NCBI GenBank assembly: GCA_028703305.1
Contig: JAQVNC010000001.1
Location: forward strand, 56,791 to 120,790
From: Patescibacteria group bacterium
GTDB lineage: Bacteria; Patescibacteriota; Patescibacteriia; Patescibacteriales; GWC2-42-12
Direction of reading: 5' to 3'
Length of the DNA stretch: 64,000 nucleotides
The translations under genes were made by a program, and so were the position numbers. How positions within the stretch are numbered: position 1 is the first letter of the stretch; each line of letters opens with the position of its first letter. This document shows positions 3,118-22,234 of this stretch, one piece after another. A model generated the notes under the pieces. That model was not told where the DNA came from, made no database searches, and worked only from the letters and a program-made list of their open reading frames with translations.

Positions 3118-3143
3118 TTAAGTCCACAAATTTGTGGACTTAA
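3118..3143. promoter_or_regulatory. Perfect 26-bp palindrome (copy 1) followed by a T-run; candidate trxA terminator and/or operator
   Basis: ttaagtccacaaatttgtggacttaa then tttttt. Confidence 0.5.
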
Positions 3144-3275: not shown

Positions 3276-4193
3276 ATGTTTGATACAATAATCATTGGCG
3301 CCGGTCCGACAGGGATGTCGGCAGCTATATATGCCGCCAGAAGAATGATGAAAACATTGGTAATCTCTAAAAATATAGGCGGCCAGGTTATCTGGGCTTC
3401 TGATATAAAAAATTATCCTGGCATAGAGTTTATTAAAGGCTTTGATTTGATAACTAAAATGAGCCGACAGGTGAAAGATCTTGGGGTTGAGATTAAAGCT
3501 GATGAAGTAAAAAAGATCAGCAAAAATAGTGATAATAGCTTTTTAATTGAAGGCAATAAGGCCAGTTATACGGCTAAAACAATAATTATTGCCATGGGGC
3601 TGGCGCCCAGACAGCTTAATTTGGACAAAGAAAATGAGTTAACCGGCAGGGGAATAAGCTACTGCGCCAATTGTGATGGACCATTGTTCAAGGGTAAAAC
3701 TGTGGCTGTGGCTGGGGGCGGCAACGCGGCCTTGGACGCGGCTGAAGTTATGTCTAAAATTGCCAACAAGGTTTATTTGATTTATCGCAAGCCGCAACTA
3801 AAAGCTTTTGAAAGCTTGGTTTCAGCAGTTAAAGATAAAAGTAATGTGGAGATAATTTTAAGCAGTGAAATTTGCCAGATAATTGGCAGTGAAAAATTGG
3901 AAAAATTGAAAATAATTTCTAATATTAGCCAAGAATCAAGAGAATTAGCTGTGGATGGGCTGTTTGTTGAAATTGGCCATCAACCCAAAACAGAGGTGTT
4001 GGAAGGATTAGTGGAAAGAGATAGTTTAGGGCAGGTTGTTGTGGACTTAAGTGGTAAAACCAGCTGTGATGGAGTTTTCGCGGCCGGCGATGTTACTCAA
4101 AGCGAATTTAAGCAGATTGTTATAGGCTGCGGCCAAGGCGCGGTAGCCGCGTTGTCGGCTTATCAATACTTGCAGACAAGCAAACAAAGTTAA
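3276..4193 (+). CDS. trxB: Thioredoxin-disulfide reductase
   Basis: GAGPTG FAD motif, redox CANCDG, GGGNAA NADPH motif, C-terminal GVFAAGDV; an alternative GTG start lies at 3228. Confidence 0.85.
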   Translation: MFDTIIIGAGPTGMSAAIYAARRMMKTLVISKNIGGQVIWASDIKNYPGIEFIKGFDLITKMSRQVKDLGVEIKADEVKKISKNSDNSFLIEGNKASYTAKTIIIAMGLAPRQLNLDKENELTGRGISYCANCDGPLFKGKTVAVAGGGNAALDAAEVMSKIANKVYLIYRKPQLKAFESLVSAVKDKSNVEIILSSEICQIIGSEKLEKLKIISNISQESRELAVDGLFVEIGHQPKTEVLEGLVERDSLGQVVVDLSGKTSCDGVFAAGDVTQSEFKQIVIGCGQGAVAALSAYQYLQTSKQS

Positions 4194-4211
4194 GATAGAA
4201 ATTGCAGATGA

Positions 4212-4318
4212 AGATTGGGCTAAATTTATAAAATTTTCTACTGCGGAACTCGCCCCAACTTAGCGTCGGGGCTCAAACAGTCCTCGCACGAAAATTTTAC
4301 AAGATTTAGCCCAATCTT
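4212..4318 (+). repeat. About 107-nt long-hairpin palindromic element (copy 1; second copy at 9150..9249), possibly a structured RNA
   Basis: Arms gattgggctaaatttataaaatttt…aaaattttacaagatttagcccaatc with a central GC hairpin cccc…gggg; the copy at 9150 has compensatory changes in both outer and central stems. Confidence 0.6.
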
Positions 4319-4328
4319 ATTGCATTAT

Positions 4329-4937
4329 ATGCTAGATTTAACAGAAGAGAAAAAATTATTTTCTCAAGGCTATAAGATAATAGGCGCTTTAGATGAGGCT
4401 GGGCGCGGGCCTTTAGCCGGGCCGGTAGTGGCCGCCTGCGTTATTTTTAATGCTAATATTAGCATAAATAACGACTTAATCAAAGTTAATGACTCAAAAA
4501 AATTAAGCGAAAAAACCAGAGAGGATTTATTTGAGTTAATTAGAAAAAATTTTCTTGAAGTTGGCGTAGGTATATGCGACCATAAAACCATAGACAGAAT
4601 TAATATATTGCAAGCCACGTTTTTGGCCATGAAGAAGGCGATTAGCTCTGTAAAAATCAAGCCGGATTTTATTATAATTGACGGGTCAGCCAACTTACCT
4701 AATTATTCAACTCCGCAGCAAGCTTATATTAAAGGCGATGAAAGGCTTTTTACTGTCGCCGCGGCTTCAATTATCGCCAAAGTGACCAGAGACAGAATAA
4801 TGCGAGAAATGGATAAATTATATCCGGACTACGGTTTTAGCCGGCATAAAGGCTATGGCACTAAATTTCATCTGGAAAAATTAAGGCAATACGGCCCGTG
4901 CGCGATTCACCGTTTAAGTTTTAATAAGGTTAAATAA
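4329..4937 (+). CDS. rnhB: Ribonuclease HII
   Basis: GxDEAGRGPLAGPVVAA active-site region and RNase HII fold; a TTG alternative start lies at 4320. Confidence 0.85.
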   Translation: MLDLTEEKKLFSQGYKIIGALDEAGRGPLAGPVVAACVIFNANISINNDLIKVNDSKKLSEKTREDLFELIRKNFLEVGVGICDHKTIDRINILQATFLAMKKAISSVKIKPDFIIIDGSANLPNYSTPQQAYIKGDERLFTVAAASIIAKVTRDRIMREMDKLYPDYGFSRHKGYGTKFHLEKLRQYGPCAIHRLSFNKVK

Positions 4938-11171: not shown

Positions 11172-11300
11172 CAAGATAGTTTAGCAAGGTAATGGATTCC
11201 CGCTTTCCCGCCAGAGGCGGACAAGCGCGGGAATGACAAATAGATTCAAGGTAGTTTATTAAGGTAATGGATTGCGGCTCGTAGGCCGCAATGACAAAAT
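11172..11300 (+). repeat. Tandem pair of short hairpin repeats (aaggtaatggattcccgc…gcgggaatgacaa and aaggtaatggattgcggc…gccgcaatgacaa) immediately upstream of the ychF start
   Basis: About 70-bp unit duplicated (tcaagRtagtttaNNaaggtaatggatt…aatgacaaa); both units end in the AATGACAA motif shared with other copies. Confidence 0.65.
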
Positions 11301-11308
11301 AAAAAATT

Positions 11309-12367
11309 ATGTCTTTATCAATCGGAATTGTCGGTTTGCCTAATGTCGGCAAATCAACTTTATTTAACGCTTTAACCAAGAAAAAAGTTGAAGCCTCCAA
11401 TTATCCGTTCTGCACCATTGATCCGAATGTGGGCGTGGTTAAAGTTCCGGACGAAAGGCTGGAAAAATTGGCGACTATTTCCAAGCCTAAAAAAATCATA
11501 CCGGCCTATATTGAATTTGTTGATATCGCCGGCCTGGTTAAGGGCGCGTCCCAAGGCGAAGGGCTGGGCAACCAGTTTTTGTCCCATATTAGAGAGTGCG
11601 ACGCTATTTTAGAAGTGGTGCGCGAATTTAAGGACGATAATATTATTCATGTTAACGGTAAAATTGATCCGGAGGGCGATAAGGAAACCATAAACCTTGA
11701 ATTAATTTTTGCCGACTTGGCCACGGTTGAAAAAAGATTGGATAAAGTCGCACGAGAAGCTAAAAGCGGCAATAAAGAGATGATTGCCTTAAAAGCGCTT
11801 TTGGAAAAATTAAAAATACAGCTTGAGGCCGGCAAGGCTGCGCGCGAGCTTGAGTTAACAGATGATGAAAGAAAAGAAATAAAAAATTTGGGATTGTTAA
11901 CGGTTAAGCCGATAATTTACGTCCTAAACTCCGAGGATAACGCCACTGAAAAATTAGATTGGGGCAGCGAGGTTATTAAAATTAACGCCAAGCTGGAAGA
12001 AGAAATTGCCAGCCTGTCGGAAGATGAGCAGATAGAATATATTAAAGAATTAGGCTTAGACCAAAGCGGTTTGGATAAATTAATTAAAGCTTCATATAAT
12101 GTTTTAGGTCTAATTACTTTTTTAACTACCGGAGCTGACGAAACTCGGGCTTGGACAGTTAAACAAAGCTCTAAAGCGCCGCAAGCGGCCGGCGTCATCC
12201 ATACGGATTTTACCAAAGGCTTTATCCGCGCTGAAATTATTAACTGGCAGAAATTCATTGAAGCCGGATCCGAGGCTAAAGCGCGCGAGCTGGGTTGGAT
12301 TAAAACCGAGGGCAAAGAATATATAATACAAGACGGAGACGTTTGCAATTTTTTAATAAATAATTGA
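11309..12367 (+). CDS. ychF: Ribosome-binding ATPase YchF
   Basis: GIVGLPNVGKSTLFNALT G1 motif, DIAGLVKGASQGEGLGNQFL, and a TGS C-terminal domain. Confidence 0.9.
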   Translation: MSLSIGIVGLPNVGKSTLFNALTKKKVEASNYPFCTIDPNVGVVKVPDERLEKLATISKPKKIIPAYIEFVDIAGLVKGASQGEGLGNQFLSHIRECDAILEVVREFKDDNIIHVNGKIDPEGDKETINLELIFADLATVEKRLDKVAREAKSGNKEMIALKALLEKLKIQLEAGKAARELELTDDERKEIKNLGLLTVKPIIYVLNSEDNATEKLDWGSEVIKINAKLEEEIASLSEDEQIEYIKELGLDQSGLDKLIKASYNVLGLITFLTTGADETRAWTVKQSSKAPQAAGVIHTDFTKGFIRAEIINWQKFIEAGSEAKARELGWIKTEGKEYIIQDGDVCNFLINN

Positions 12368-12390
12368 CAAAGTTTATAAAATTGCTATAT
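12363..12390 (+). promoter_or_regulatory. Near-consensus sigma70 promoter (TTGACA-16-TATATT) overlapping the ychF stop codon
   Basis: tTGAca contains the ychF TGA stop; spacer aagtttataaaattgc; -10 tatatt. Confidence 0.6.
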
Positions 12391-12396
12391 TAAAGG

Positions 12397-12645
12397 GCTA
12401 CATCACAGTTGCTCTTTTTTAATACGCGGGATTCATTGGCCTGCCGGGGCTAATGATGAAATTTTTGCTTAAGCCTTTAAAACCAGTCCGCTGGCCGAGG
12501 CCACCTCCTCCTACCGCAACGGACGGGGTTTTCGCAAAAGTTTGATTTCCCGCTTTAGGGGTTGGTCTGCTGTGCGGCGGAGTTGCCAACGACTGCTCCG
12601 CTTGACTAATGCATGCCACGGACCGCCCCTTTTTCTCTTTTTAAA
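12397..12645 (+). ncRNA. Candidate GC-rich structured ncRNA of unknown class, about 250 nt, bounded by a promoter and a terminator
   Basis: About 55% GC in a roughly 35% GC genome with no credible ORF in any frame; long-range stem aggggttggtc/gaccgcccct followed by ttttctcttttt; an internal gcggag…ctccgc hairpin. Confidence 0.4.
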
Positions 12646-12883
12646 AAGCATCAATTAAGATGCTTCTTTTTTTATAAAATTTGCCCAGATTATTTAATCT
12701 AAAATTTCATATTCCCAGCCCGGTTGCCAACCGGTCGCCAGGTCATTCTCATTATCAATCGTCGTGCCATGCACGAAGTAGGTTATTTTTACGGGCATAA
12801 TTAAGAGTAGATATTTTATTTAGTACAAAGTGTAAAAGAATTAGGGTATAAATGCTCCGGAGACAAGGCTTATTATTACATGA

Positions 12884-14137
12884 CTATGCGGCAAAAGCAA
12901 ACAATTGTTGCTGAATGCACACAGGCGTTTCCTCTTTTTCTTCTTCAATTTCACCGTTAAGCATTTTAATTATCATGTCGCCGATGTGATATCCGAGGTT
13001 TGCAGGTACAGCATTTCCTATTTGTTTATATTGTTGCGAAACGGATCCTGAAAATTTCCAACTATCTGGAAATGTTTGAATTCGCGCGTATTCGCGCACA
13101 GACAAAGGGCGCGTTTCATCTGGATGGCAACGTTCAGTTTGTTTTTGAGCCGGACTGCAAGTTAAGGTTAAAGATGGTTCGTCCCATGACAATCGTCTCG
13201 CCATGCCAGTTTTGCCGCCACCCATAAAATAACTTGCTCCCATGTATTCTTTTTGAAGATTTTCCGGAAGATCTCTCCAGTACCCGCCAGGAGGAATTAG
13301 TTCTAATATTTTTTTCTTTTTTTCGGGATATTCTTGGCCTTCAGATTTTGGGCATCTGTTGAATGCTTCACGCAGGGGAACGATATAATCTTTTTCCCTT
13401 GGAAATGAAATTGGAATATTTAAATCTTTTCTAACGCCAATAATTATAAGACGTTCTCTTTTTTGCGGAACATCCAAATATTGTGATCGTAGAATTTTAT
13501 ATTTAACTCGGTATCCAATTTCTTCTAAAACAGACACCATCGTTTTAATCGTTCTGCCATCGTTATGGTTTAGTAATCCTTTGACATTTTCTCCAATTGC
13601 AATTTTAGGCCTAACTTCCTTAACACATCTCGCGAACTCAAAAAATAATGTACCCCGTATATCTTCAAACCCCATTTTTCGACCAGCTTGCGAAAAAGTC
13701 TGGCAAGGGAAACCTCCTTGAACAATATCAGCCTGCCCTTTAAAAAATTTAAGCTCTCTTATATCTTTTTCCACAACATTCCAATTTGGCTTGTTGATTC
13801 GAAGTGTTTCACAGGCGTGTTTGTCATACTCGTTTAATAACACATGTTCAATTCCCGCGTTTTCCATCCCTAAAGCAGTGCCCCCTGCGCCAGCAAATAA
13901 CTCGATTGCTGTGTAGTTGGACATTCGATTATTCTTTAAAATTTTAAATTTGCTTTTTTTATCCCCATGAGTTTTATTTTGTATTCTCTTTATTTCTTCT
14001 AAACTAAATATACGATCGTTTTTTCCATCTCTAAAAGATTTAATTAATCCTTTTTTATCCCACCTCCTGATAGTATCAATTGAAATACCTAATTGACGAG
14101 CCGCCTCTCCAGCGGTTATGAATTGATTTTTTTTCAT
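12884..14137 (-). CDS. DNA (cytosine-5) methyltransferase with an N-terminal MerR/excisionase-type HTH domain
   Basis: N-terminal FITAGEAARQLGISIDTIRRWDKKGLI (HTH); ELFAGAGG (motif I); GFPCQTFSQAGRKMG (PC motif IV); ENV; and a C-terminal QIGNAVP. Confidence 0.85.
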   Translation of the reverse strand: MKKNQFITAGEAARQLGISIDTIRRWDKKGLIKSFRDGKNDRIFSLEEIKRIQNKTHGDKKSKFKILKNNRMSNYTAIELFAGAGGTALGMENAGIEHVLLNEYDKHACETLRINKPNWNVVEKDIRELKFFKGQADIVQGGFPCQTFSQAGRKMGFEDIRGTLFFEFARCVKEVRPKIAIGENVKGLLNHNDGRTIKTMVSVLEEIGYRVKYKILRSQYLDVPQKRERLIIIGVRKDLNIPISFPREKDYIVPLREAFNRCPKSEGQEYPEKKKKILELIPPGGYWRDLPENLQKEYMGASYFMGGGKTGMARRLSWDEPSLTLTCSPAQKQTERCHPDETRPLSVREYARIQTFPDSWKFSGSVSQQYKQIGNAVPANLGYHIGDMIIKMLNGEIEEEKEETPVCIQQQLFAFAA

Positions 14138-14198
14138 AAAAAATGATAGATTAATAATCTATCATAATTATATCAAATAACCTTTGCCTAGGCAATGG

Positions 14199-14906
14199 TT
14201 ATTTAGTGAGAAAAGCTAATTTAAATAATTCAAAATATTTCTTAGCTTCTTCTTTGCTTAATTTAAACTTGTATTTGTCTACTAAAATATGAGATAGTGC
14301 TTCAAATAGTTCCTGCAGGGCATATTTTCGTCCGGTTGCAAGAGCATAAAAGCTTATGCCATCAATTATTCTGATATTTTTTGCGCTCGGTCTTCTTTTT
14401 TGAGTCTTATTGTCTGATGGGGTAAAAGGTTTGTCGTATATGTTTTTTGCTTGAGGTATTATTTCTACATAATATCCAGTAAAGCGATGAAATTTTTCTG
14501 ATTTAAGTTTTGATTTTATAGCATCATATATTTCAACCTTATGATTTCCTTTTGTTGTATTGAATTTATTTTTTACTTCCGCGATAATTTTCATTTTATC
14601 ATTTGCAACATCCAAACCTCCACCAACGCCGAGATTTTTCCAGCCAGGGATTGCACCCAATACTTCTTGATGAAAATCACCAATGGCATTTTGCATTGTT
14701 TTTTGTGATTGTCTGGCCTTTTCTTGTTTTATCCATTCTTTATATGTTATCGCATGGGTGACCCCATGAAACAAGGCTGAAAAAGGATCAATAACATTTT
14801 TATGGAGATTACTACTGGCCTCACGTTCGGTCGTTTTGATTATTCTGACCACTTTTCCAACGGCAGAAATTAGGTTTTTGTCGGATATAAATTTTAGATA
14901 TGGCAT
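14199..14906 (-). CDS. Putative type II restriction endonuclease partnering the C5-MTase (tentatively Eco47II-like)
   Basis: Adjacent and co-directional with the C5-MTase, 235 aa, no housekeeping similarity; the family assignment is from memory only. Confidence 0.45.
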   Translation of the reverse strand: MPYLKFISDKNLISAVGKVVRIIKTTEREASSNLHKNVIDPFSALFHGVTHAITYKEWIKQEKARQSQKTMQNAIGDFHQEVLGAIPGWKNLGVGGGLDVANDKMKIIAEVKNKFNTTKGNHKVEIYDAIKSKLKSEKFHRFTGYYVEIIPQAKNIYDKPFTPSDNKTQKRRPSAKNIRIIDGISFYALATGRKYALQELFEALSHILVDKYKFKLSKEEAKKYFELFKLAFLTK

Positions 14907-14927
14907 AAATATTTTTAATAATTAATT

Positions 14928-15110
14928 AAATCGTTTTCGCGGCGGAGCGGTTTTGCTCAACGTCGGCGCATATAAGAAGAAATGCGAAACGAGTTGAGGT
15001 GGTACAATTTGTGCGGAGCACTACCACCGAAAACGAGTGTAGCATTTTTTGCGTGAACGAGCCATGCGAGTGAGCCTTATATGCGCTGTTATATGCTGTG
15101 CCAGCCTTAT
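14928..15110. repeat. GC-rich repeat A: the 3' half of the 66-bp core plus a variable hairpin module (gcgcatataag…cttatatgcgc)
   Basis: cgcggcggagcggttttgctcaacg matches the right half of the cores at 15731 and 18911; long-range cgttttcg/cgaaaacg pairing. Confidence 0.6.
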
Positions 15111-15111
15111 A

Positions 15112-15570
15112 CTAAAGCTGTTTTTTCATTAGTGTCATTGAACCTACATCACCAACAATTTCCTTTATTTTTTTATATCCTAACTTCTTATAAAAATTTA
15201 CTGCAAAGGGGCTTGCTTTAAGGGAGACGGAGCGAAAACCCCATTTTTTTGCGTCACTTTCTAAACGATTCATGAGCTCTCTACCAATGCCCTTACCATG
15301 ATAATTCGGATTAACAAACACAGCACGACCCCAATTATCGTTCAGTGTTAAATCTAAAGTAGCAGTACCAACAACTTTTCCATTTAATTCAGCAACATAG
15401 ATATTGAATCGTTTAGAATCCTTAATAAACTGACCAGGTGTAAAATGCTTGTAGAGGATCACAGTTTGCTTTTTAGTTATATCTTTACTGTTAATTAAAA
15501 CGATACATTTTCTGCTTAAATAAGAAAGTTTTCGCTCGTCTCCCTTTTTAAATTTTCGAATTTTAATCAT
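15112..15570 (-). CDS. GNAT-family N-acetyltransferase
   Basis: Acetyl-CoA motif VGTATL…RAVFVNPNYHGKGIGRELM; start taken at MIKIRKF (15570), because the ORF-track N-extension runs into the GC repeat. Confidence 0.75.
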   Translation of the reverse strand: MIKIRKFKKGDERKLSYLSRKCIVLINSKDITKKQTVILYKHFTPGQFIKDSKRFNIYVAELNGKVVGTATLDLTLNDNWGRAVFVNPNYHGKGIGRELMNRLESDAKKWGFRSVSLKASPFAVNFYKKLGYKKIKEIVGDVGSMTLMKKQL

Positions 15571-15574
15571 AAGT

Positions 15575-15900
15575 TTAAGGCTGACATGGCATATAACGCG
15601 CGCGGGATATGCGATGCGCCTGGAGGCCAGTACTCTGGCCGCAAGGCGTTTCGCATATCCCGAGTTGGGCGATGCCGCTCCGCCTTGCCCGTAGGGCGGG
15701 CGAGCGGCGAGTCCAACGAGGGCCTGCCCGCGCGCGTTGAGCAAAACCGCGAGCACCGAGCGTTAGCGAGGGCGGAGCGGTTTTGCTCAACGTATCGGCA
15801 TATCTGATGTTTGCCGTAGCGTAGCGGAGGCAAATATGGGTGGAGGCTTTTGTATAAAAGCCGTAACCAGATATGCCGTGTTATGTGATGTGCATGTTTT
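15575..15900. repeat. GC-rich repeat B: hairpin cgggatatgcga…tcgcatatcccg, then the 66-bp core (15731..15796), then a variable hairpin module (ggcatatctg…cagatatgcc)
   Basis: The core cgcgcGTTGAGCaaaaccgc…gcggttttGCTCAACgtatc is identical to 18911..18976. Confidence 0.7.
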
Positions 15901-16016
15901 ACTTTAATCCCGATAGCAATCGGGATTGCTCTAAAAAAGAATTTTAATTTTGTTTTTTTTGTTTTGAAAAAATGAAAGAGGGGTTAGGGGTGAATTCCAT
16001 TTTTCAAAACTCCTTA

Positions 16017-16754
16017 TTATTTACTACGTTGTTTTTTATAAGCCTCAATAATTTTATTTGCCAATTCATTAGATTTAGATTCGTATTTTACAAATTCATC
16101 AATATTATCTTGTTTAACATGTAGCTGCCCTTCTCCGGTGTTGCCTCTGTGCTGTCCTTTTGAATAGTATTTATTTTGCTCAACTTCTTTTGAAGCAAGT
16201 ACCCAATATTTAATCGTGTCTCGCCAAACTCCAACCCAAACAAAAACATCGCAACATTTAGGCTTTACTTGTTGAAAATTCATATCAAATGGTAGTCCTG
16301 ATTCCCATGCTAACGCTTTAACATAAAGTGCTTCTTGACTGTTAAAATCGACAGCTCTTGAGGCTTTAACTTCTATTTTAATCATTTCTCCATTCGTTAG
16401 CGGATATAAAAAGTCGTATTCTCCAGAATAATTTTCTTCAAGTTTCTTTGTTGGCTTAATAAGTTCAGGAGCAAGCTCTTTTAGGTGTCCCTGTGCCCAT
16501 TGTTCTCCAAACCCACGTGGTGCAGAAATTTCAAATATGTAGAGATACATATTTCTAGCAATATACTCATCTCTAATTTCTAGATAATCGTCTAAAGTGA
16601 TTTTATCTAGACCTAACAAAGTTGAAATTATGTATTCATATTCATTAAATGGATACACCGAAATTAAATTTTCGAGCCTTGTTTTAAGTCCGTCGCCCTC
16701 TTGTTTTGAAAGAGAGTCTATCATCTTTTCGAGTTTTTTCTTTAGAATTTCCAT
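16017..16754 (-). CDS. Hypothetical protein with a PD-(D/E)xK-like motif; putative restriction endonuclease of the second R-M module
   Basis: …EYDFLYPLTNGEMIKIEVKASRA… (D…ExK arrangement); 4 bp downstream of and co-directional with the N6A-MTase. Confidence 0.4.
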   Translation of the reverse strand: MEILKKKLEKMIDSLSKQEGDGLKTRLENLISVYPFNEYEYIISTLLGLDKITLDDYLEIRDEYIARNMYLYIFEISAPRGFGEQWAQGHLKELAPELIKPTKKLEENYSGEYDFLYPLTNGEMIKIEVKASRAVDFNSQEALYVKALAWESGLPFDMNFQQVKPKCCDVFVWVGVWRDTIKYWVLASKEVEQNKYYSKGQHRGNTGEGQLHVKQDNIDEFVKYESKSNELANKIIEAYKKQRSK

Positions 16755-16758
16755 AGGA

Positions 16759-18723
16759 TTATTTAATGTTAAAATTTTTAATATGTTTTTTTTCTTTTTC
16801 TGTAAGACTAAATTGATCCATTATATAATTATCCAATTCTTCATATTTGTCTTTTTTGGCTATTATATCATCTACTAATTTCATAATTATTTCAAAAATT
16901 TCTTTATTCCATAAAGGTAAAGGCATTTGTTCAATATGATTTCTCAAAACTTTTATACTCGAAAACTTTTTTTGAAAAATAAACTGATAAGGAGATGAGT
17001 TTAATAAAGCAACGATAACCTTAATTGGATAGTTTGGGATTTTGGGAATTACAATATTTGCACTATTTAAAGTTAATTTTTGCTTGTCATCATATGCAAA
17101 TATCAAATACTTTGAAATGAAGCGATAAATTAATTTTTCTTTAGCTCTATATTTTTCGATAGGAGCAACTTGTTGAAATTTTTCGGGAGTAAATTGTATG
17201 TAATTTGACGGATTACTTAAAATAAATTTATCAACTTCTTTTCCTTTATATATTTCTTCAAGTCCTTCTTTTTTTTCGCTCGTTATATATGCTTTGTTAT
17301 TGCCAGTAACAATACCAAGTGCCCAATCTGCTTGATTTGATAATGTTGTGTGCTGAATATCAAAAATTTTATCAATTATGCTTGTATCAAAGCCATTTGC
17401 ATGTATGTCAAAAACAAAGTCAATATTATTTTTCCACTTAGATTGTTCAATGAAATATTTTTCATTTTCTTTAAAAATTTCAATCTGTGTGTTTTCTATT
17501 CTGTTTTTTTCTAAATCAAGTCTGATAACTGGAGTAAATACATTTTTAAACACACGATTCAAACAAGAGACTTTTTTTATATGAGTATTTTTCAAAATAA
17601 TTTCTCGTATATCTTTGTGTGTTTTTACATTCAAAATTGATTCAGGCAAGATAAATGAAATAAATCCTCCGTCTTTTAGCAAATCAATACTCTTTTTTAA
17701 GAAATAAGAGAAAGATTCTAAAGATGTTATTTCAGGATAGGTTGTTTTTAATTTTTCTGTATCTAATTTTGAAAAATGAACACCCCAAGGTGGATTTGTC
17801 GCAATTACATCAAAATCTCTAATATTCTCGTCATTCAAACTAAATAAATCATAACTTCCAATTTCAAAAAGTGTATTTTTACAAACAATATTTGGTGCGA
17901 AGTTTTGATCTTTATATTTCATCAAGATATTTAATCTTGCGATTCTCACAGCTATTTCGTCTATATCAACTCCGTAAATATTTTTTGGATTTTCAACTGT
18001 ATCAGCAAATGCTAATAAAAATTGACCTGTTCCACAACAAGGGTCTAAAACTTTAGAATCTGTTTTTACATAATCCTTAATTATTTCATTAACGATTGTT
18101 TCTGGCGTATAATAAGAGCCTCCTTGTGATTTTTCCCCCTCAAGTAATAGTGATTGATAAAAAAATCCCAAAGTATCACGTTGTCTGGGGATAGAACAAT
18201 TTAACAAAAAGGAATATTCATCTTTAACATTATCAACACCAATATCTGATAACCATGCTTTGATTTCTTCTGAGATTTGTTTGTTGGTGGAAGATAAATT
18301 TTGTGTGATTAAATTTTGAATTGTAATATTTGAAAATATTTTTTCTTTTTGAAGTAAGTTAAGACTTAATAATAATAAAGAAAGTGAAGTATTAATATTA
18401 TTTTTTGAAACAAAGTCTAAAATTTTATTTATGTCATCAATACTAATCCCATCTTTTAAATATTCATCTGGAATAAAAGTCCTCTCTGCTTTAGATTTAT
18501 TTGCCCTTCCATTTAATTTGTCAAAATCACCATTTACTATGTTAGATTTGATATTTTCAATATCGGATAAACTAAAAGAATATCGTCTTTCATTGTTATA
18601 TGTTTTTAGATGACCGCATTTAACCCAATTTCTTACGGTCGCAGTTGAAATACCTAAAAAAGACGACGCTTTTTCAATGTCTATGATATTTTTTGCCTTA
18701 TTTGTAATAGTTAATTCCTGCAT
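16759..18723 (-). CDS. Gamma-class N6-adenine DNA methyltransferase with an N-terminal HTH and a C-terminal target-recognition domain
   Basis: N-terminal ASSFLGISTATVRNWVKCGHL (HTH); VLDPCCGTGQFLL (motif I) precedes DVIATNPPWG (motif IV); start taken at MQELTIT (18723), so the ORF-track N-extension is untranslated leader. Confidence 0.8.
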   Translation of the reverse strand: MQELTITNKAKNIIDIEKASSFLGISTATVRNWVKCGHLKTYNNERRYSFSLSDIENIKSNIVNGDFDKLNGRANKSKAERTFIPDEYLKDGISIDDINKILDFVSKNNINTSLSLLLLSLNLLQKEKIFSNITIQNLITQNLSSTNKQISEEIKAWLSDIGVDNVKDEYSFLLNCSIPRQRDTLGFFYQSLLLEGEKSQGGSYYTPETIVNEIIKDYVKTDSKVLDPCCGTGQFLLAFADTVENPKNIYGVDIDEIAVRIARLNILMKYKDQNFAPNIVCKNTLFEIGSYDLFSLNDENIRDFDVIATNPPWGVHFSKLDTEKLKTTYPEITSLESFSYFLKKSIDLLKDGGFISFILPESILNVKTHKDIREIILKNTHIKKVSCLNRVFKNVFTPVIRLDLEKNRIENTQIEIFKENEKYFIEQSKWKNNIDFVFDIHANGFDTSIIDKIFDIQHTTLSNQADWALGIVTGNNKAYITSEKKEGLEEIYKGKEVDKFILSNPSNYIQFTPEKFQQVAPIEKYRAKEKLIYRFISKYLIFAYDDKQKLTLNSANIVIPKIPNYPIKVIVALLNSSPYQFIFQKKFSSIKVLRNHIEQMPLPLWNKEIFEIIMKLVDDIIAKKDKYEELDNYIMDQFSLTEKEKKHIKNFNIK

Positions 18724-18771
18724 GGTAATTTGTCTTTTATAGTGTAATTGTATCTTGTTTTCAAAAATATT

Positions 18772-18806
18772 AAAATCGTTTTCGGAGCGATAGCGGAGAA
18801 AACACC
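18772..18806. repeat. Degenerate partial copy (D) of the GC-rich repeat in the 5' leader of the N6A-MTase
   Basis: aaaatcgttttcggagcgatagcggagaaaacacc versus repeat A aaatcgttttcgcggcggagcgg. Confidence 0.45.
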
Positions 18807-18879
18807 TTATACCCCCCTCTTTAAAAATTAAAAAAATCAAATTCCTTGTTTCTTAAAGCCCACCAAAAACATTTAAAAA

Positions 18880-19140
18880 AACAAATTTTTCAAAAATATG
18901 TCGCCTAACGCGCGCGTTGAGCAAAACCGCGAGCACCGAGCGTTAGCGAGGGCGGAGCGGTTTTGCTCAACGTATCCGAATATACGAAGTTCTAATTTTT
19001 TTCTGTGTTATAATTGTGCGGACACGCCAACGCAGAAAAAAATTAGAATTTAGGCGGAGATAAAATTCAACTCATTAATGTAATGTAAAAAGGAATTTTA
19101 TCGGAGCCGTATATTCGGTGTTATCGGATGTAAAATTTAT
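18880..19140. repeat. GC-rich repeat C: GCCTAAC-gcgcgc then the 66-bp core (18911..18976) then a variable module (cgaatatacg…cgtatattcg, with a nested ttctaatttttttctg…cagaaaaaaattagaa hairpin)
   Basis: 66-bp perfect identity with 15731..15796; the flanking stems covary around a central ATAT. Confidence 0.7.
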
Positions 19141-19152
19141 TAGCGGGCTTAT

Positions 19153-19482
19153 TTAAACGAAAATTTGAATAATATAATAATAAATGACACTTAAAACAAG
19201 TATTAAACTTGTTGCTTTGATAAATTGATTTTTTATTAATATCGAAAATTTGATTAAAAAGAACGTTAATGCCAAAAATATTATTAGCGGATAAATGCTC
19301 ATTATAACAAAAGCAGTGCCTCCAAAAACGGCTTGAATGCTTTCGTTGAAATCAGAAGGGTAGCCGTTTATTTTTGGAATTATAAATAAGTAACATGCTG
19401 ATAAAAATAATGAGCTTACAAAAAGAAGCGGAATTAATAAAAAATCAAATTTTTGGGGTCTTAAGATTTGTAGTGGTTTCAT
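19153..19482 (-). CDS. Hypothetical small membrane protein (3 TM segments)
   Basis: Hydrophobic profile only. Confidence 0.45.
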   Translation of the reverse strand: MKPLQILRPQKFDFLLIPLLFVSSLFLSACYLFIIPKINGYPSDFNESIQAVFGGTAFVIMSIYPLIIFLALTFFLIKFSILIKNQFIKATSLILVLSVIYYYIIQIFV

Positions 19483-19597
19483 TGTTATATTGTTAAAAAT
19501 TAGAAAGCTAATAAATTTTATTTCCGATAACTAGTTATATATGAACTTAATTATATTTTATTTAATTTTACAATAAAAATCAAATAAGGTTTTGGGT

Positions 19598-19634
19598 TTT
19601 TTTCTGGATTCCCGCCTGTGCGGGAATGACAAGC
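19598..19634 (+). repeat. Short hairpin repeat ttttctggattcccgcctgtgcgggaatgacaa (S2)
   Basis: Same consensus as the copies at 20845, 50640, 11187 and 62333. Confidence 0.65.
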
Positions 19635-19638
19635 GGGA

Positions 19639-20814
19639 TTATTTTTCCAATATAACTATCTCCCGCCAAACCTTTTGCCCGTCGCGGCCGTAGATAATAC
19701 TGTCGCGGTTGGTTATTTTTAGAAAAATATTTTTTTTCAGGTTGGCCGGTATAGAGCCAATAATTTTATAACCATCTATGTTAGGGTAGATAAAAGTTGA
19801 AAGTTTTCCCTGAAACACGGGCCAAATCATCACGATTTTACCACCGGGTTTTAAAATTTTTTTAAATTCTCTTAAACTTTCGGAATATAATTTTTCCAGT
19901 TCAGTTTTTATTTTATTAATCGGCGTATTGCCTCTTTGCGGGCCTAAATACGGTTCGGTAATAATAAAATCTATTGAATTCGGCGCAATGTGTTTTGAAA
20001 TTTGCGCGGCGTCAGAATGAAAAAGCTTAAAATTTAAAGCTTCAAGTTTAAAATTAGATTGAACCCAGGCGAGATTATTTTTTGTGTCTCCGAGAGCCCT
20101 GTCGGATATATCAGAACCGGTTATTTTTTTATAGCCCATTAAAGCCGCTTCGGTAATAATCGTGCCAGAACCGCAAAATGGATCTAAAATAGCCGCGCCT
20201 AAATCCGCGCCAGCTAAATTTATCATAATCTGCGCCAGCTTGGGCGGCAACATGCCGGAATAATCGTCGCGCGCCGGCCGGCCGTAATCTCTAAATGACA
20301 ATTCTTTAAACGGCTGGACGGCCAGGGTTTTTCCTAAAAGTAATTTTTTATTAAATTCAATAATAACGATTTCCACGCCTTTGTCCGTAACTAATTTGTT
20401 CTGCTCCACCACTACGCTTGATAAAGTCGGTTCCCGGCTTATAACCCAGCGGCTATTTATGCCTGACTCTTTAAGTAATTTTTTAAATTCCATGCCTAAA
20501 ACTTTTAAGTTAATTTTACTTTTACCATAATAAGAAATGCCAAAATTAAATTTTGAATCACTTTTTTCCGGTTTGGCGAAGCTGGTAGCTGATTTTAAAA
20601 TGTCTTTAACAGCAATTGAAGCTGGCTCGCCATGAATTAGGCCGAATTTAACGGTGCCGCCGATTTTTTTAATAATATTAGCCTTTATTTCTTCGTTAGT
20701 TTCTAAAATCGCGATATTTTTTTGAATTAAAGAAAATTGGCCATGATTAAAAACGGCCGTTAGTTCGGCTAAGGATAAAGTCGGGTTGGTGCCCAGAATG
20801 AAGAAATAACGCAT
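19639..20814 (-). CDS. THUMP-domain RNA methyltransferase (RlmL/Trm-G10-like, UPF0020)
   Basis: N-terminal THUMP-like region plus DPFCGSGTIITEAALMGYKKITGSDIS…, a SAM-binding methylase core. Confidence 0.7.
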   Translation of the reverse strand: MRYFFILGTNPTLSLAELTAVFNHGQFSLIQKNIAILETNEEIKANIIKKIGGTVKFGLIHGEPASIAVKDILKSATSFAKPEKSDSKFNFGISYYGKSKINLKVLGMEFKKLLKESGINSRWVISREPTLSSVVVEQNKLVTDKGVEIVIIEFNKKLLLGKTLAVQPFKELSFRDYGRPARDDYSGMLPPKLAQIMINLAGADLGAAILDPFCGSGTIITEAALMGYKKITGSDISDRALGDTKNNLAWVQSNFKLEALNFKLFHSDAAQISKHIAPNSIDFIITEPYLGPQRGNTPINKIKTELEKLYSESLREFKKILKPGGKIVMIWPVFQGKLSTFIYPNIDGYKIIGSIPANLKKNIFLKITNRDSIIYGRDGQKVWREIVILEK

Positions 20815-22121: not shown

Positions 22122-22234
22122 GTCATTGCGAGCGAACGGAGTGAGCGAAGCAATCTCACGTATGAGAAGTTTAAATTATAATTTTTACTTCGTGGGATTG
22201 CTTCGTCGCCTATTACGGCTCCTCGCAATAACAA
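22122..22234. repeat. Nested palindromic repeat L1 (gtcattgcgag…gaagcaatctcac…gtgggattgcttc…ctcgcaataacaa), intercistronic between ssb and rpsR
   Basis: Outer and inner inverted blocks shared with five other copies. Confidence 0.75.

Follow-up and report, generated by a model that had tools for sequence, protein, structure and literature searches.

What keeps a set of hairpins paired while their sequences diverge? The question is raised by an AT-rich gene island in a 64,000-nucleotide stretch of the chromosome of a Patescibacteria group bacterium (GenBank assembly GCA_028703305.1, contig JAQVNC010000001.1, positions 56,791 to 120,790 of the forward strand; hereafter, the window, with positions counted from its first letter). 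An initial annotation of the island had marked three hairpin modules directly 3' of the copies of a repeated core, and had proposed that they are either attC-type or other structure-recognized recombination sites or a structured RNA family. Integrons are the main known system in which folded single-stranded DNA serves as a recombination site. Our follow-up supports the proposal of recombination sites on the strength of covariation, cassette anatomy, the AAC/GTT ends, the pairing of cassette ends, shared cassettes, and a bottom-strand bias. The modules are probably attC-type, structure-recognized recombination sites that bound an integron-like cassette array at ~14.96–19.53 kb, and the array possibly extends down to 12.9 kb.

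The outer inverted repeats of all three modules (J1, J2, and J3) are exact, with arms lying 1–8 nt from where they were first placed. J3, originally given a length of 149 nt and an end at 19125, in fact ends at 19118 and is ~143 nt long. The set of three is real and incomplete, as a fourth module of the same design (J_B), on the other side of the second core, had been overlooked. The inner hairpins listed with them (ggtggta/taccacc, tttgcc/ggcaaa, and ttctaattttttt.../...aaaaaaattagaa) are seen in the DNA folds, and the fold z-scores of the modules range from −2.9 to −7.4. A central ATAT had been taken as a constant of the arms; this is true within the window and not general, as relatives carry ACAT/ATGT, GTAT/ATAC, or ATAA/TTAT, and the conserved consensus of the L'' arm across sites is nnGnnTATnnG. 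Of the description "conserved structure, free sequence," the first half stands. The interior is not free, since most modules share a three-way junction, which in most sites other than J_B is made up of the L stem, hairpin 1, a bottom-strand motif TTTGGGYGRRG, and hairpin 2. A strict pattern scan of the window (AAC, 0–7 nt, an exact 9-mer, a loop, the reverse complement of the 9-mer, 0–7 nt, GTT) gave six matches, compared with a mean of 1.2 and a maximum of four in 50 shuffles. Four of the six matches are the modules, and they have one constant spacer geometry, of 4–5 nt and 1 nt.

Related arrays were found elsewhere in the Candidate Phyla Radiation (CPR). A 20-mer from the core matched only one genome in a genome-collection scan, a Falkowbacteria metagenome-assembled genome (MAG; locus L001). 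A metagenome scan with a degenerate 21-mer returned 35 loci, of which 34 are chance matches in GC-rich DNA and one, on a JGI metagenome contig (L024), is real. Looking up homologues of the GNAT acetyltransferase encoded in the window array gave L037 (GCA_003560455.1) and L044 (an ENA contig of 785 bp), and a protein-collection search with a spurious ORF translated across the ORF-less cassette described below gave L046, also an ENA contig. Two scans of viral contigs found nothing.

The junctions of these arrays follow a single plan. On the gene strand, the order is CNNNNAAC (R''), 1 nt (a or t), the L'' arm, a variable loop, the L' arm, 4–5 nt, and GTTNNNNG (R'). The resulting geometry of AAC, 1 nt, L'', a loop of 36–203 nt, L', 4–5 nt, and GTT is common to 12 of 12 sites. 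The L'' arm is 11–12 nt long, except for 9 nt in one L037 site, and the 4–5-nt segment before GTT ends in AC, with GC instead in the three J_B copies. When folded, a site comprises a stacked L box, a 9-bp R box, and a cargo-specific extension of at least 13 bp; the two boxes are separated by a 1 × 4–5-nt unpaired spacer, and the extension lies past a conserved 2-nt mismatch. A cassette spans from the TT of GTTNNNNG through the cargo, CNNNNAAC, the 1-nt spacer, L'', the interior, and L' to nnAC-G. Cassettes are co-oriented, with one site at the end of each. The modules had been seen as 3' appendages of the repeated core. They are instead the 3' ends of neighboring minus-strand cassettes. The core, too, is a cassette, one that lacks an ORF, has a site of its own, and has spread within this lineage. 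The copy at 14941–14961, counted as the third core, comprises only the last 21 nt of the core.

Base pairs in these sites covary. In an alignment of 12 sites from four CPR contigs, each rebuilt from a cassette's R'' extension, its L boxes, and its own start, standard pairs occupy 86.4% of cells, compared with 60.1% when shuffled and 26%–43% when slid by 1–3 columns. Pairs changed on both sides number 27 of 33 (19.1 shuffled, 12–17 slid), and the covariation score is 0.676 (0.184 shuffled, 0.10–0.18 slid). No observed covariation value was reached in any of 500 shuffles. The L box is 97.7% paired, with nine of its 11 pairs compensatory; the R core is 89.8% paired, with five of nine pairs changed on both sides; and the outer extension is 74.4% paired. 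AAC and GTT (alignment columns 22–24 and 57–59) are invariant in 12 of 12 sites. The test of covariation in more copies, suggested at the outset, thus came out strongly positive, and the outcome that would have spoken against it, stems decaying independently, is exceptional. The one decayed site found lies at 3143–3312 of L046; its interior is homologous throughout to the L001 sites, and its L arms (GGCATCATGCG / CCGCTTATCCC) are unpaired. At one further L046 junction the site has been lost.

Pairing also links the two ends of a cassette. Counted from GTT, the first 24 nt of a cassette are complementary to the 24 nt that precede its own AAC, which lie hundreds to thousands of nucleotides away. 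Of the 21 positions that follow GTT, cognate ends match at a mean of 13.9 and non-cognate ends at 6.1 ± 2.5. The ends are complementary at 22 of 24 positions in the L001 blocks and in cassette "delta" (the 109-aa block of the window), and at 20 of 24 in the GNAT cassette; in the ORF-less cassette, the first 21 nt pair at 81% with the 21 nt preceding its own AAC. Cassette "gamma" reaches just 11 of 24, and its 5' end is therefore probably rearranged. The mismatch at positions 10–11 is conserved, the start reading ...G-A-AA-T where the reverse complement of the end reads ...G-A-TG-T. With its ends paired in this way, a block behaves like a linearized circle, a single long palindrome cut at AC|GTT, and this is the logic of an integron cassette.

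The same cassettes and site types occur in different arrays. The ORF-less cassette with J_B recurs in the window, in L001 (twice), in L024, and in L046, with differing neighbors. The J_B side is constant next to this cassette, and the site on the opposite side varies, with five different L boxes. Hence, as in integrons, each site is part of the cassette that precedes it on the gene strand; assigning each module to the cassette on its low-coordinate side was considered and rejected on the same observation. In its variants, the R box of the ORF-less cassette reads GTTGAGC, GTTGTGC, or GTTATGC, each matching its own partner. The GNAT cassette is found in three contexts: the window, L037 (74% amino acid identity), and L044 (81%). 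Homology among the three starts exactly at CGTT, with unrelated DNA upstream, and continues downstream through the R'' extension before being lost within the site. The GNAT R boxes have diverged yet are complementary (CATATAAC/GTTATATG versus CACACAAC/GTTGTGGT), and so has the L box (GCGCATATAAG versus AACACTATG). Conversely, a single site type (R box GTTATCGG/CCGATAAC, L box CCGAATATACG) serves three cargos that are unrelated to one another, those of the window, L024, and L046, and each of these cargos has its own outer complementary extension. GNAT relatives at 57%–70% identity (loci L038–L043; P0005, P0006, P0010, and P0011) are ordinary genes with no sites.

The cargo consists of restriction-modification systems and the GNAT gene in the window, and of HicA toxin-antitoxin pairs in L046. 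Two HicA/DUF7387 toxin-antitoxin operons of L046 (1834–2391 and ~3790–4336) lie inside hairpin 1, between the L arms of attC-like sites, and are flanked by an inverted repeat of their own (TTGACTTATTTTT / AAAAATAAGTCAA). It follows that genes can occupy the interior of a site as well as the body of a cassette. The first cassette of L001 (1640–1850) has a 43-aa ORF that is opposite to the other cassette genes and has its own near-consensus promoter, TTGACA-17-TATACT. A 68-nt noncoding hairpin (gttttgaaaaaatgaa...ttccatttttcaaaac) is shared by the window and L001 (379–444) at 91% identity, and in both genomes it sits just 3' of mutually unrelated cassette ORFs, between the ORF and the R'' extension.

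The two strands of a site are not equivalent. When folded as DNA, 12 of 14 sites are more stable on the strand antisense to the genes, the mean difference being 3.0 kcal/mol, and this strand is G- and purine-rich (positive GC skew), again in 12 of 14 sites. The bottom strands of attC sites also have the more stable fold and are purine/G-rich; the AAC triplet is the only conserved stretch of attC, and its unpaired features are extrahelical bases, an unpaired central spacer, and a variable terminal structure (Nivina et al., PMC5027507). The CPR sites resemble attC in that AAC/GTT alone is invariant and the pairs of the R and L boxes vary with pairing kept, and also in having a spacer between the boxes that is unpaired, though of other dimensions, in the variable terminal structure, and the G-rich, better-folding bottom strand. 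The arrays as a whole resemble sedentary chromosomal integron arrays such as those of the Vibrio cholerae repeats (VCR) of Vibrio, with co-oriented cassettes that each finish in an imperfect palindrome and with a cassette start complementary to its own R''. Reuse of one site type for many cargos, ORF-less cassettes, and toxin-antitoxin and restriction-modification cargo are further points of likeness to integrons.

Upstream of the first gene-strand cassette, the array has a module-less ATAAC-ta-GTTAT junction, a putative attI-like primary site. This array head (19496–19565) is 78% identical to 1944–2009 of L001, and a similar head junction, AGTTCGTATAATAATGA|GTTATGCG, lies upstream of the first cassette of L037. 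There is a consensus-level promoter match at 19583–19555 on the minus strand, in a setting where promoter matches are not enriched over shuffles. From this architecture we infer recombination of single strands. The folded strand, most probably the one antisense to the genes, would be bound by a tyrosine recombinase whose gene lies elsewhere in the genome. Strand exchange would take place at the invariant AAC/GTT, presumably at a point within ACGTT. Cassettes would then leave the array as circles and be inserted again, probably at the module-less ATAAC-ta-GTTAT junction of the array head, and the arrays would be active in the present-day organism.

A number of points weigh against the attC-type reading, beginning with the size of the sample. 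The sequences in the alignment are related and few in number, one cassette accounts for three of the rows, and the structure guided the choice of register; since the arrays found, only five, all come from one narrow lineage, few independent events lie behind the covariation. The geometry also departs from that of canonical sites. In eight class-1 attC sites that we extracted from four plasmids, the R box is 6–7 bp, the spacer is 5 × 6 nt, and the L box is 3 bp, a bulged base, and 6 bp. The bulge is present in eight of eight class-1 sites, whereas the CPR L boxes are perfect 11–12-bp duplexes (9 bp once) with no extrahelical base; at 11 bp, the typical CPR L box also has a conserved TAT core. 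The CPR spacer is 1 × 4–5 nt versus 5 × 6, and the CPR R consensus is GTTRTNNG versus RYYYAAC / GTTRRRY. Only GTTGAGC, GTTGGGC, and GTTAGGT/GTTAGGC fit GTTRRRY, most sites having GTTATNN or GTTGTGN. Complementarity in the CPR cassettes runs at least 13 bp beyond the R box, past the fixed 2-nt mismatch, and is cargo-specific; to our knowledge, long cargo-specific complementarity outside the R box has not been described for attC. The three-way interior with its conserved TTTGGGYGRRG is no attC feature either, and it can house a whole toxin-antitoxin operon. A home-made covariance model (R1), built from the eight class-1 sites, matches no CPR module at E ≤ 10. R1 also misses canonical sites of 95–127 nt and finds attC sites of 60–72 nt, including one on which it was not trained (35 bits); its failure to match is thus a genuine negative where the 82-nt J_B sites are concerned and carries no information on the long sites.

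The recombinase is a further point on the same side. Among gene-like ORFs of at least 100 aa in the 64-kb window, a set that leaves out long ORFs inside or opposite identified genes, Pfam shows no tyrosine or serine recombinase and no transposase. There is no recombinase on L037 or L046, and L001 and L024 were read as raw ORFs only. An L001 ORF at 2053–2268 ("...IRNFSPKTIQAYVYYNK") was considered as the remnant of a tyrosine-recombinase N-terminus and dropped: it has no homologue in the protein collection and no Pfam or NCBIfam match, its PDB matches are at chance level, and it has no counterpart in the window. There is also no direct evidence of excision or insertion. With no extrahelical bases, another spacer geometry, no integrase, and no match to R1, the sites are not formally established as members of the IntI/attC family.

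Since no recombinase was found, the arrays appear to be integrase-less, like the clusters of attC sites lacking an integron integrase known as CALINs. These are common and more widespread than complete integrons, and their mobilization in trans is thought possible. The CPR arrays share with CALINs the presence of several attC-like sites within a few kilobases and no integrase in the neighborhood. They differ from complete integrons, in which an adjacent, divergent intI encodes a tyrosine recombinase with an IntI-specific insertion; no such gene is present among the scanned ORFs of the window or on L037 and L046. They also differ from CALINs as formally defined: that category is set by the attC covariance model of IntegronFinder, and the CPR sites, set against the home-made R1 alone, were unmatched. 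Archaeal integrons, mostly CALINs, have been found in MAGs with standard attC models and IntI profiles, and are reported to have canonical structure (Ghaly et al. 2022, PMC9668308). They offer a precedent for arrays surfacing in lineages formerly without known integrons, from which the CPR arrays deviate in site geometry. A bolder version, which we put forward tentatively and rate as somewhat less than an even chance, is that CPR bacteria have a non-canonical integron of their own, with chromosomal arrays of three-helix sites whose 11-bp L box has no extrahelical bases, a conserved three-way interior able to host genes, and a recombinase other than a classical adjacent IntI supplied in trans (possibly of Xer type), the end complementarity perhaps being a footprint of cassette genesis.

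Could the same pairing be kept for some purpose other than recombination? A structured RNA family (3'-UTR stabilizers, processing sites, or small regulatory RNAs), sense or antisense to the island genes, would account for the strong pair covariation and for modules lying just 3' of ORFs, and a three-way junction with single-stranded TTTGGGYGRRG looks more like an RNA or a protein-binding element than like the free terminal structure of attC. The better fold of the antisense strand disfavors a sense-strand 3'-UTR element, and neither the complementarity of the first and last 24 nt across up to several kilobases nor the invariant AAC/GTT and the exchange between genomes exactly at GTT is explained by RNA function. 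The modules have no match to Rfam families at the gathering score; at that score the whole window gives tRNAs only, and searches of 14800–19300 and 12340–12900 by E-value give nothing credible. We therefore regard an RNA family as unlikely. An antisense RNA role for the conserved junction motif could be compatible with recombination. A position downstream of genes would also suit ordinary terminators, which the initial annotation had named as a refuting outcome, or chance palindromes in AT-rich intergenic DNA. The four terminator-like sites (GC stem plus T run) found in 12300–19800 overlap no module, no module is itself terminator-like, the site pattern is enriched over shuffles, and one geometry is common to modules of five contigs, all of which makes terminators or chance a very remote prospect.

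Two further explanations invoke mobility of another kind. Acinetobacter plasmids carry Xer-dependent pdif modules, discrete gene modules that include toxin-antitoxin genes, have inverted-repeat ends, and adjoin no dedicated recombinase gene. The CPR junctions might similarly be double-stranded sites of a housekeeping Xer-type recombinase, with incidental hairpins; there is no dedicated integrase near any array, the ends of pdif modules are likewise inverted repeats, and two junctions, ATAAC-ta-GTTAT and AAC-gcgcgc-GTT, and these two only, resemble two inverted half-sites with a short spacer. Most junctions, by contrast, have 66–230 nt between AAC and GTT, not an 11-6-11 arrangement. Where pdif sites are conserved 28-bp duplexes, the CPR junctions are long covarying hairpins whose crossover-flanking arms differ from one junction to the next and are matched within a cassette only, so that no shared site would be available to an enzyme reading duplex DNA; there would also be no role for the L boxes or the strand-specific folding bias. 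Such duplex sites seem to us quite improbable, and an Xer-type enzyme acting on the folded strand is possible. Selfish palindromic repeats are a comparably poor prospect, and if anything a slightly poorer one. Elements like repetitive extragenic palindromes (REPs), bacterial interspersed mosaic elements (BIMEs), or miniature inverted-repeat transposable elements (MITEs), moved by a REP-associated tyrosine transposase (RAYT), an HUH enzyme, or another transposase, could have entered the intergenic spaces of an island gained by horizontal transfer, the look of cassettes being a by-product. Other intergenic hairpin repeats of the kind typical of CPR genomes abound in the window, the ORF-less core recurs as a GC-rich unit, some arms contain small GC-rich insertions, and REPs and BIMEs too are intergenic imperfect palindromes that can cluster. 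REPs, however, are genome-wide, tied to RAYTs, marked by a conserved 5' tetranucleotide, and conserved in sequence, as are the ends that a transposase recognizes. The CPR modules differ from copy to copy while staying complementary, are confined to arrays, and delimit mobile gene units, and no Y1/RAYT or other transposase is found among the scanned ORFs of the window. Nor does the insertion of repeats create cargo-specific 24-nt complementarity at both ends of a block or move a GNAT gene with exact GTT boundaries.

We return to the integron-like array itself, the parts of which are listed below together with the genes of the island.

Table. Genes, cassettes, modules, and junctions of the island, in window coordinates.
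Feature	Position	Strand	Details
HTH-fused C5 cytosine methylase	12884–14137	−	Pfam
R.Eco47II (Eco47II-type endonuclease)	14199–14906	−	Pfam
Distal unit (candidate cassette)	12884–14961	−	ORF-less cassette-start remnant of 21 nt (14941–14961), R.Eco47II, HTH-fused C5 methylase
GNAT cassette	14962–15597	−	Start GTTATATGCCATGTCAGCCTTA = reverse complement of 15576–15597; R'' extension and core 15088–15109; J1 14962–15095
Module J1	14966–14976 / 15076–15086		GCGCATATAAG pairs with CTTATATGCGC; exact 11-nt inverted repeat
GNAT acetyltransferase ORF	15112–15570	−	Pfam
ORF-less cassette (complete core, 194 bp)	15598–15791	−	Core hairpin 15735–15792, 18-nt linker, core' hairpin 15664–15720, J_B
Module J_B	15603–15662		Arms CGGGATATGCGA 15603–15614 / TCGCATATCCCG 15651–15662
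Cassette "gamma"	15792–18909	−	Methylase, 245-aa ORF, 68-nt hairpin 15955–16022, site J2 (15792–15887)
Module J2	15796–15806 / 15868–15878		CGGCATATCTG pairs with CAGATATGCCG; exact 11-nt inverted repeat
245-aa ORF of unknown function	16017–16754	−	No Pfam match
N6-adenine methyltransferase with TaqI_C domain	16759–18723	−	Pfam
Module-less junction AAC-gcgcgc-GTT, mini-cassette/methylase cassette	18907–18918		Read directly
Hairpin-only, ORF-less mini-cassette (third full core)	18916–18971	−	GTTGAGCAAAACCGC...GCGGTTTTGCTCAAC; 16-bp perfect inverted repeat
Cassette "delta"	18972–19531	−	Start GTTATCGGAAAT... = reverse complement of 19508–19531; ORF 19153–19482; R'' extension and core 19120–19143
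attC-like site J3	18972–19127	−	Spacer 18972–18975; three-way interior; R'' core CCGATAAC = reverse complement of 19120–19127
Module J3	18976–18986 / 19108–19118		CCGAATATACG pairs with CGTATATTCGG; exact 11-nt inverted repeat
109-aa membrane-protein ORF	19153–19482	−	No Pfam match
Array head, module-less end	19532–19560	−	Junction CCGATAAC-ta-GTTATATATGAAC (plus strand, 19524–19546), read directly

The ORF-less cassette is built of two hairpins, core (GTTGAGCAAAACCGC...GCGGTTTTGCTCAAC) and core' (GTTGGGCG...CCAAC). The core hairpin folds at −23.4 kcal/mol (z −4.9), as computed on a copy identical to that of the mini-cassette. The junction between the mini-cassette and the methylase cassette is apparently a deletion derivative, since the full version has the same gcgcgc flanking core' and J_B. 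A GC-rich sequence, GAGCG(N)TAGCGAG, recurs in the loops of ORF-less cassettes and also in 35–50-nt GC-rich insertions that break the R'' extensions of several cassettes (window 15757–15772, 18937–18952, and 18783–18800; L024; L037 8790–8840; L046 2400–2440 and 3680–3700); it may be a tiny mobile or protein-binding element. At the far end of the array, a 3' site for the distal unit with the Eco47II and C5-methylase genes was looked for, and none was found.

Apart from the island, the gene content of the window is that of a typical CPR chromosome, with ychF, recA, ruvC, ssb, rpsF, efp, SMC, aminoacyl-tRNA synthetases, and seven tRNAs. The island is flanked by ychF (11309–12367, plus strand) and a UPF0020-type methyltransferase gene (19639–20814, minus strand). 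Its GC content is 0.27–0.33 over 14–20 kb, against ~0.40 elsewhere, and its genes are on the minus strand without exception. The gene for the 245-aa protein directly follows that of the N6-adenine methylase within one cassette, and its product is probably the cognate restriction endonuclease. Both restriction-modification units share GCTCCG...GAAAACGATTT(T)AAT just upstream of their first minus-strand gene (14925–14940 and 18775–18790), possibly as a common promoter or leader. Between ychF and the island, a GC-rich stretch amid AT-rich DNA (12419–12620) has a 66-aa ORF and no Pfam or Rfam match, and may represent a relic or an RNA not yet described. Short hairpin repeats of two families are scattered through the intergenic parts of the window, one (TCTGGATTCCCGCCTGCGCGGGAATGACA) at 11210, 19603, 20848, 50646, and 62332, and the other (GTCATTGCGAGC...GCGAAGCAATCTCAC) at 22122, 23186, 37771, 51956, 57608, and 58940. 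The copy at 19603 sits between the array head and the neighboring gene.

Integrons have been reported from several bacterial phyla and recently from Archaea; we found no description of integrons or attC sites in CPR/Patescibacteria in the searchable literature. If standard attC models miss these sites as R1 did, metagenome surveys of integrons may under-count such systems. The deviant sites are natural variants that bear on what a structure-specific recombinase needs, as they lack extrahelical bases and have an asymmetric spacer, a conserved junction motif, and an additional helix that is long and contains a fixed mismatch. The question of where cassettes come from is informed by the reuse of an inner site for unrelated cargos, by the complementary ends that each cargo has of its own, and by the GNAT relatives at 57%–70% identity that are ordinary genes. 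If the attC-type reading is true, an integron-like platform would show how tiny, host-dependent bacteria trade defense systems (restriction-modification and toxin-antitoxin) and accessory genes despite their reduced genomes.

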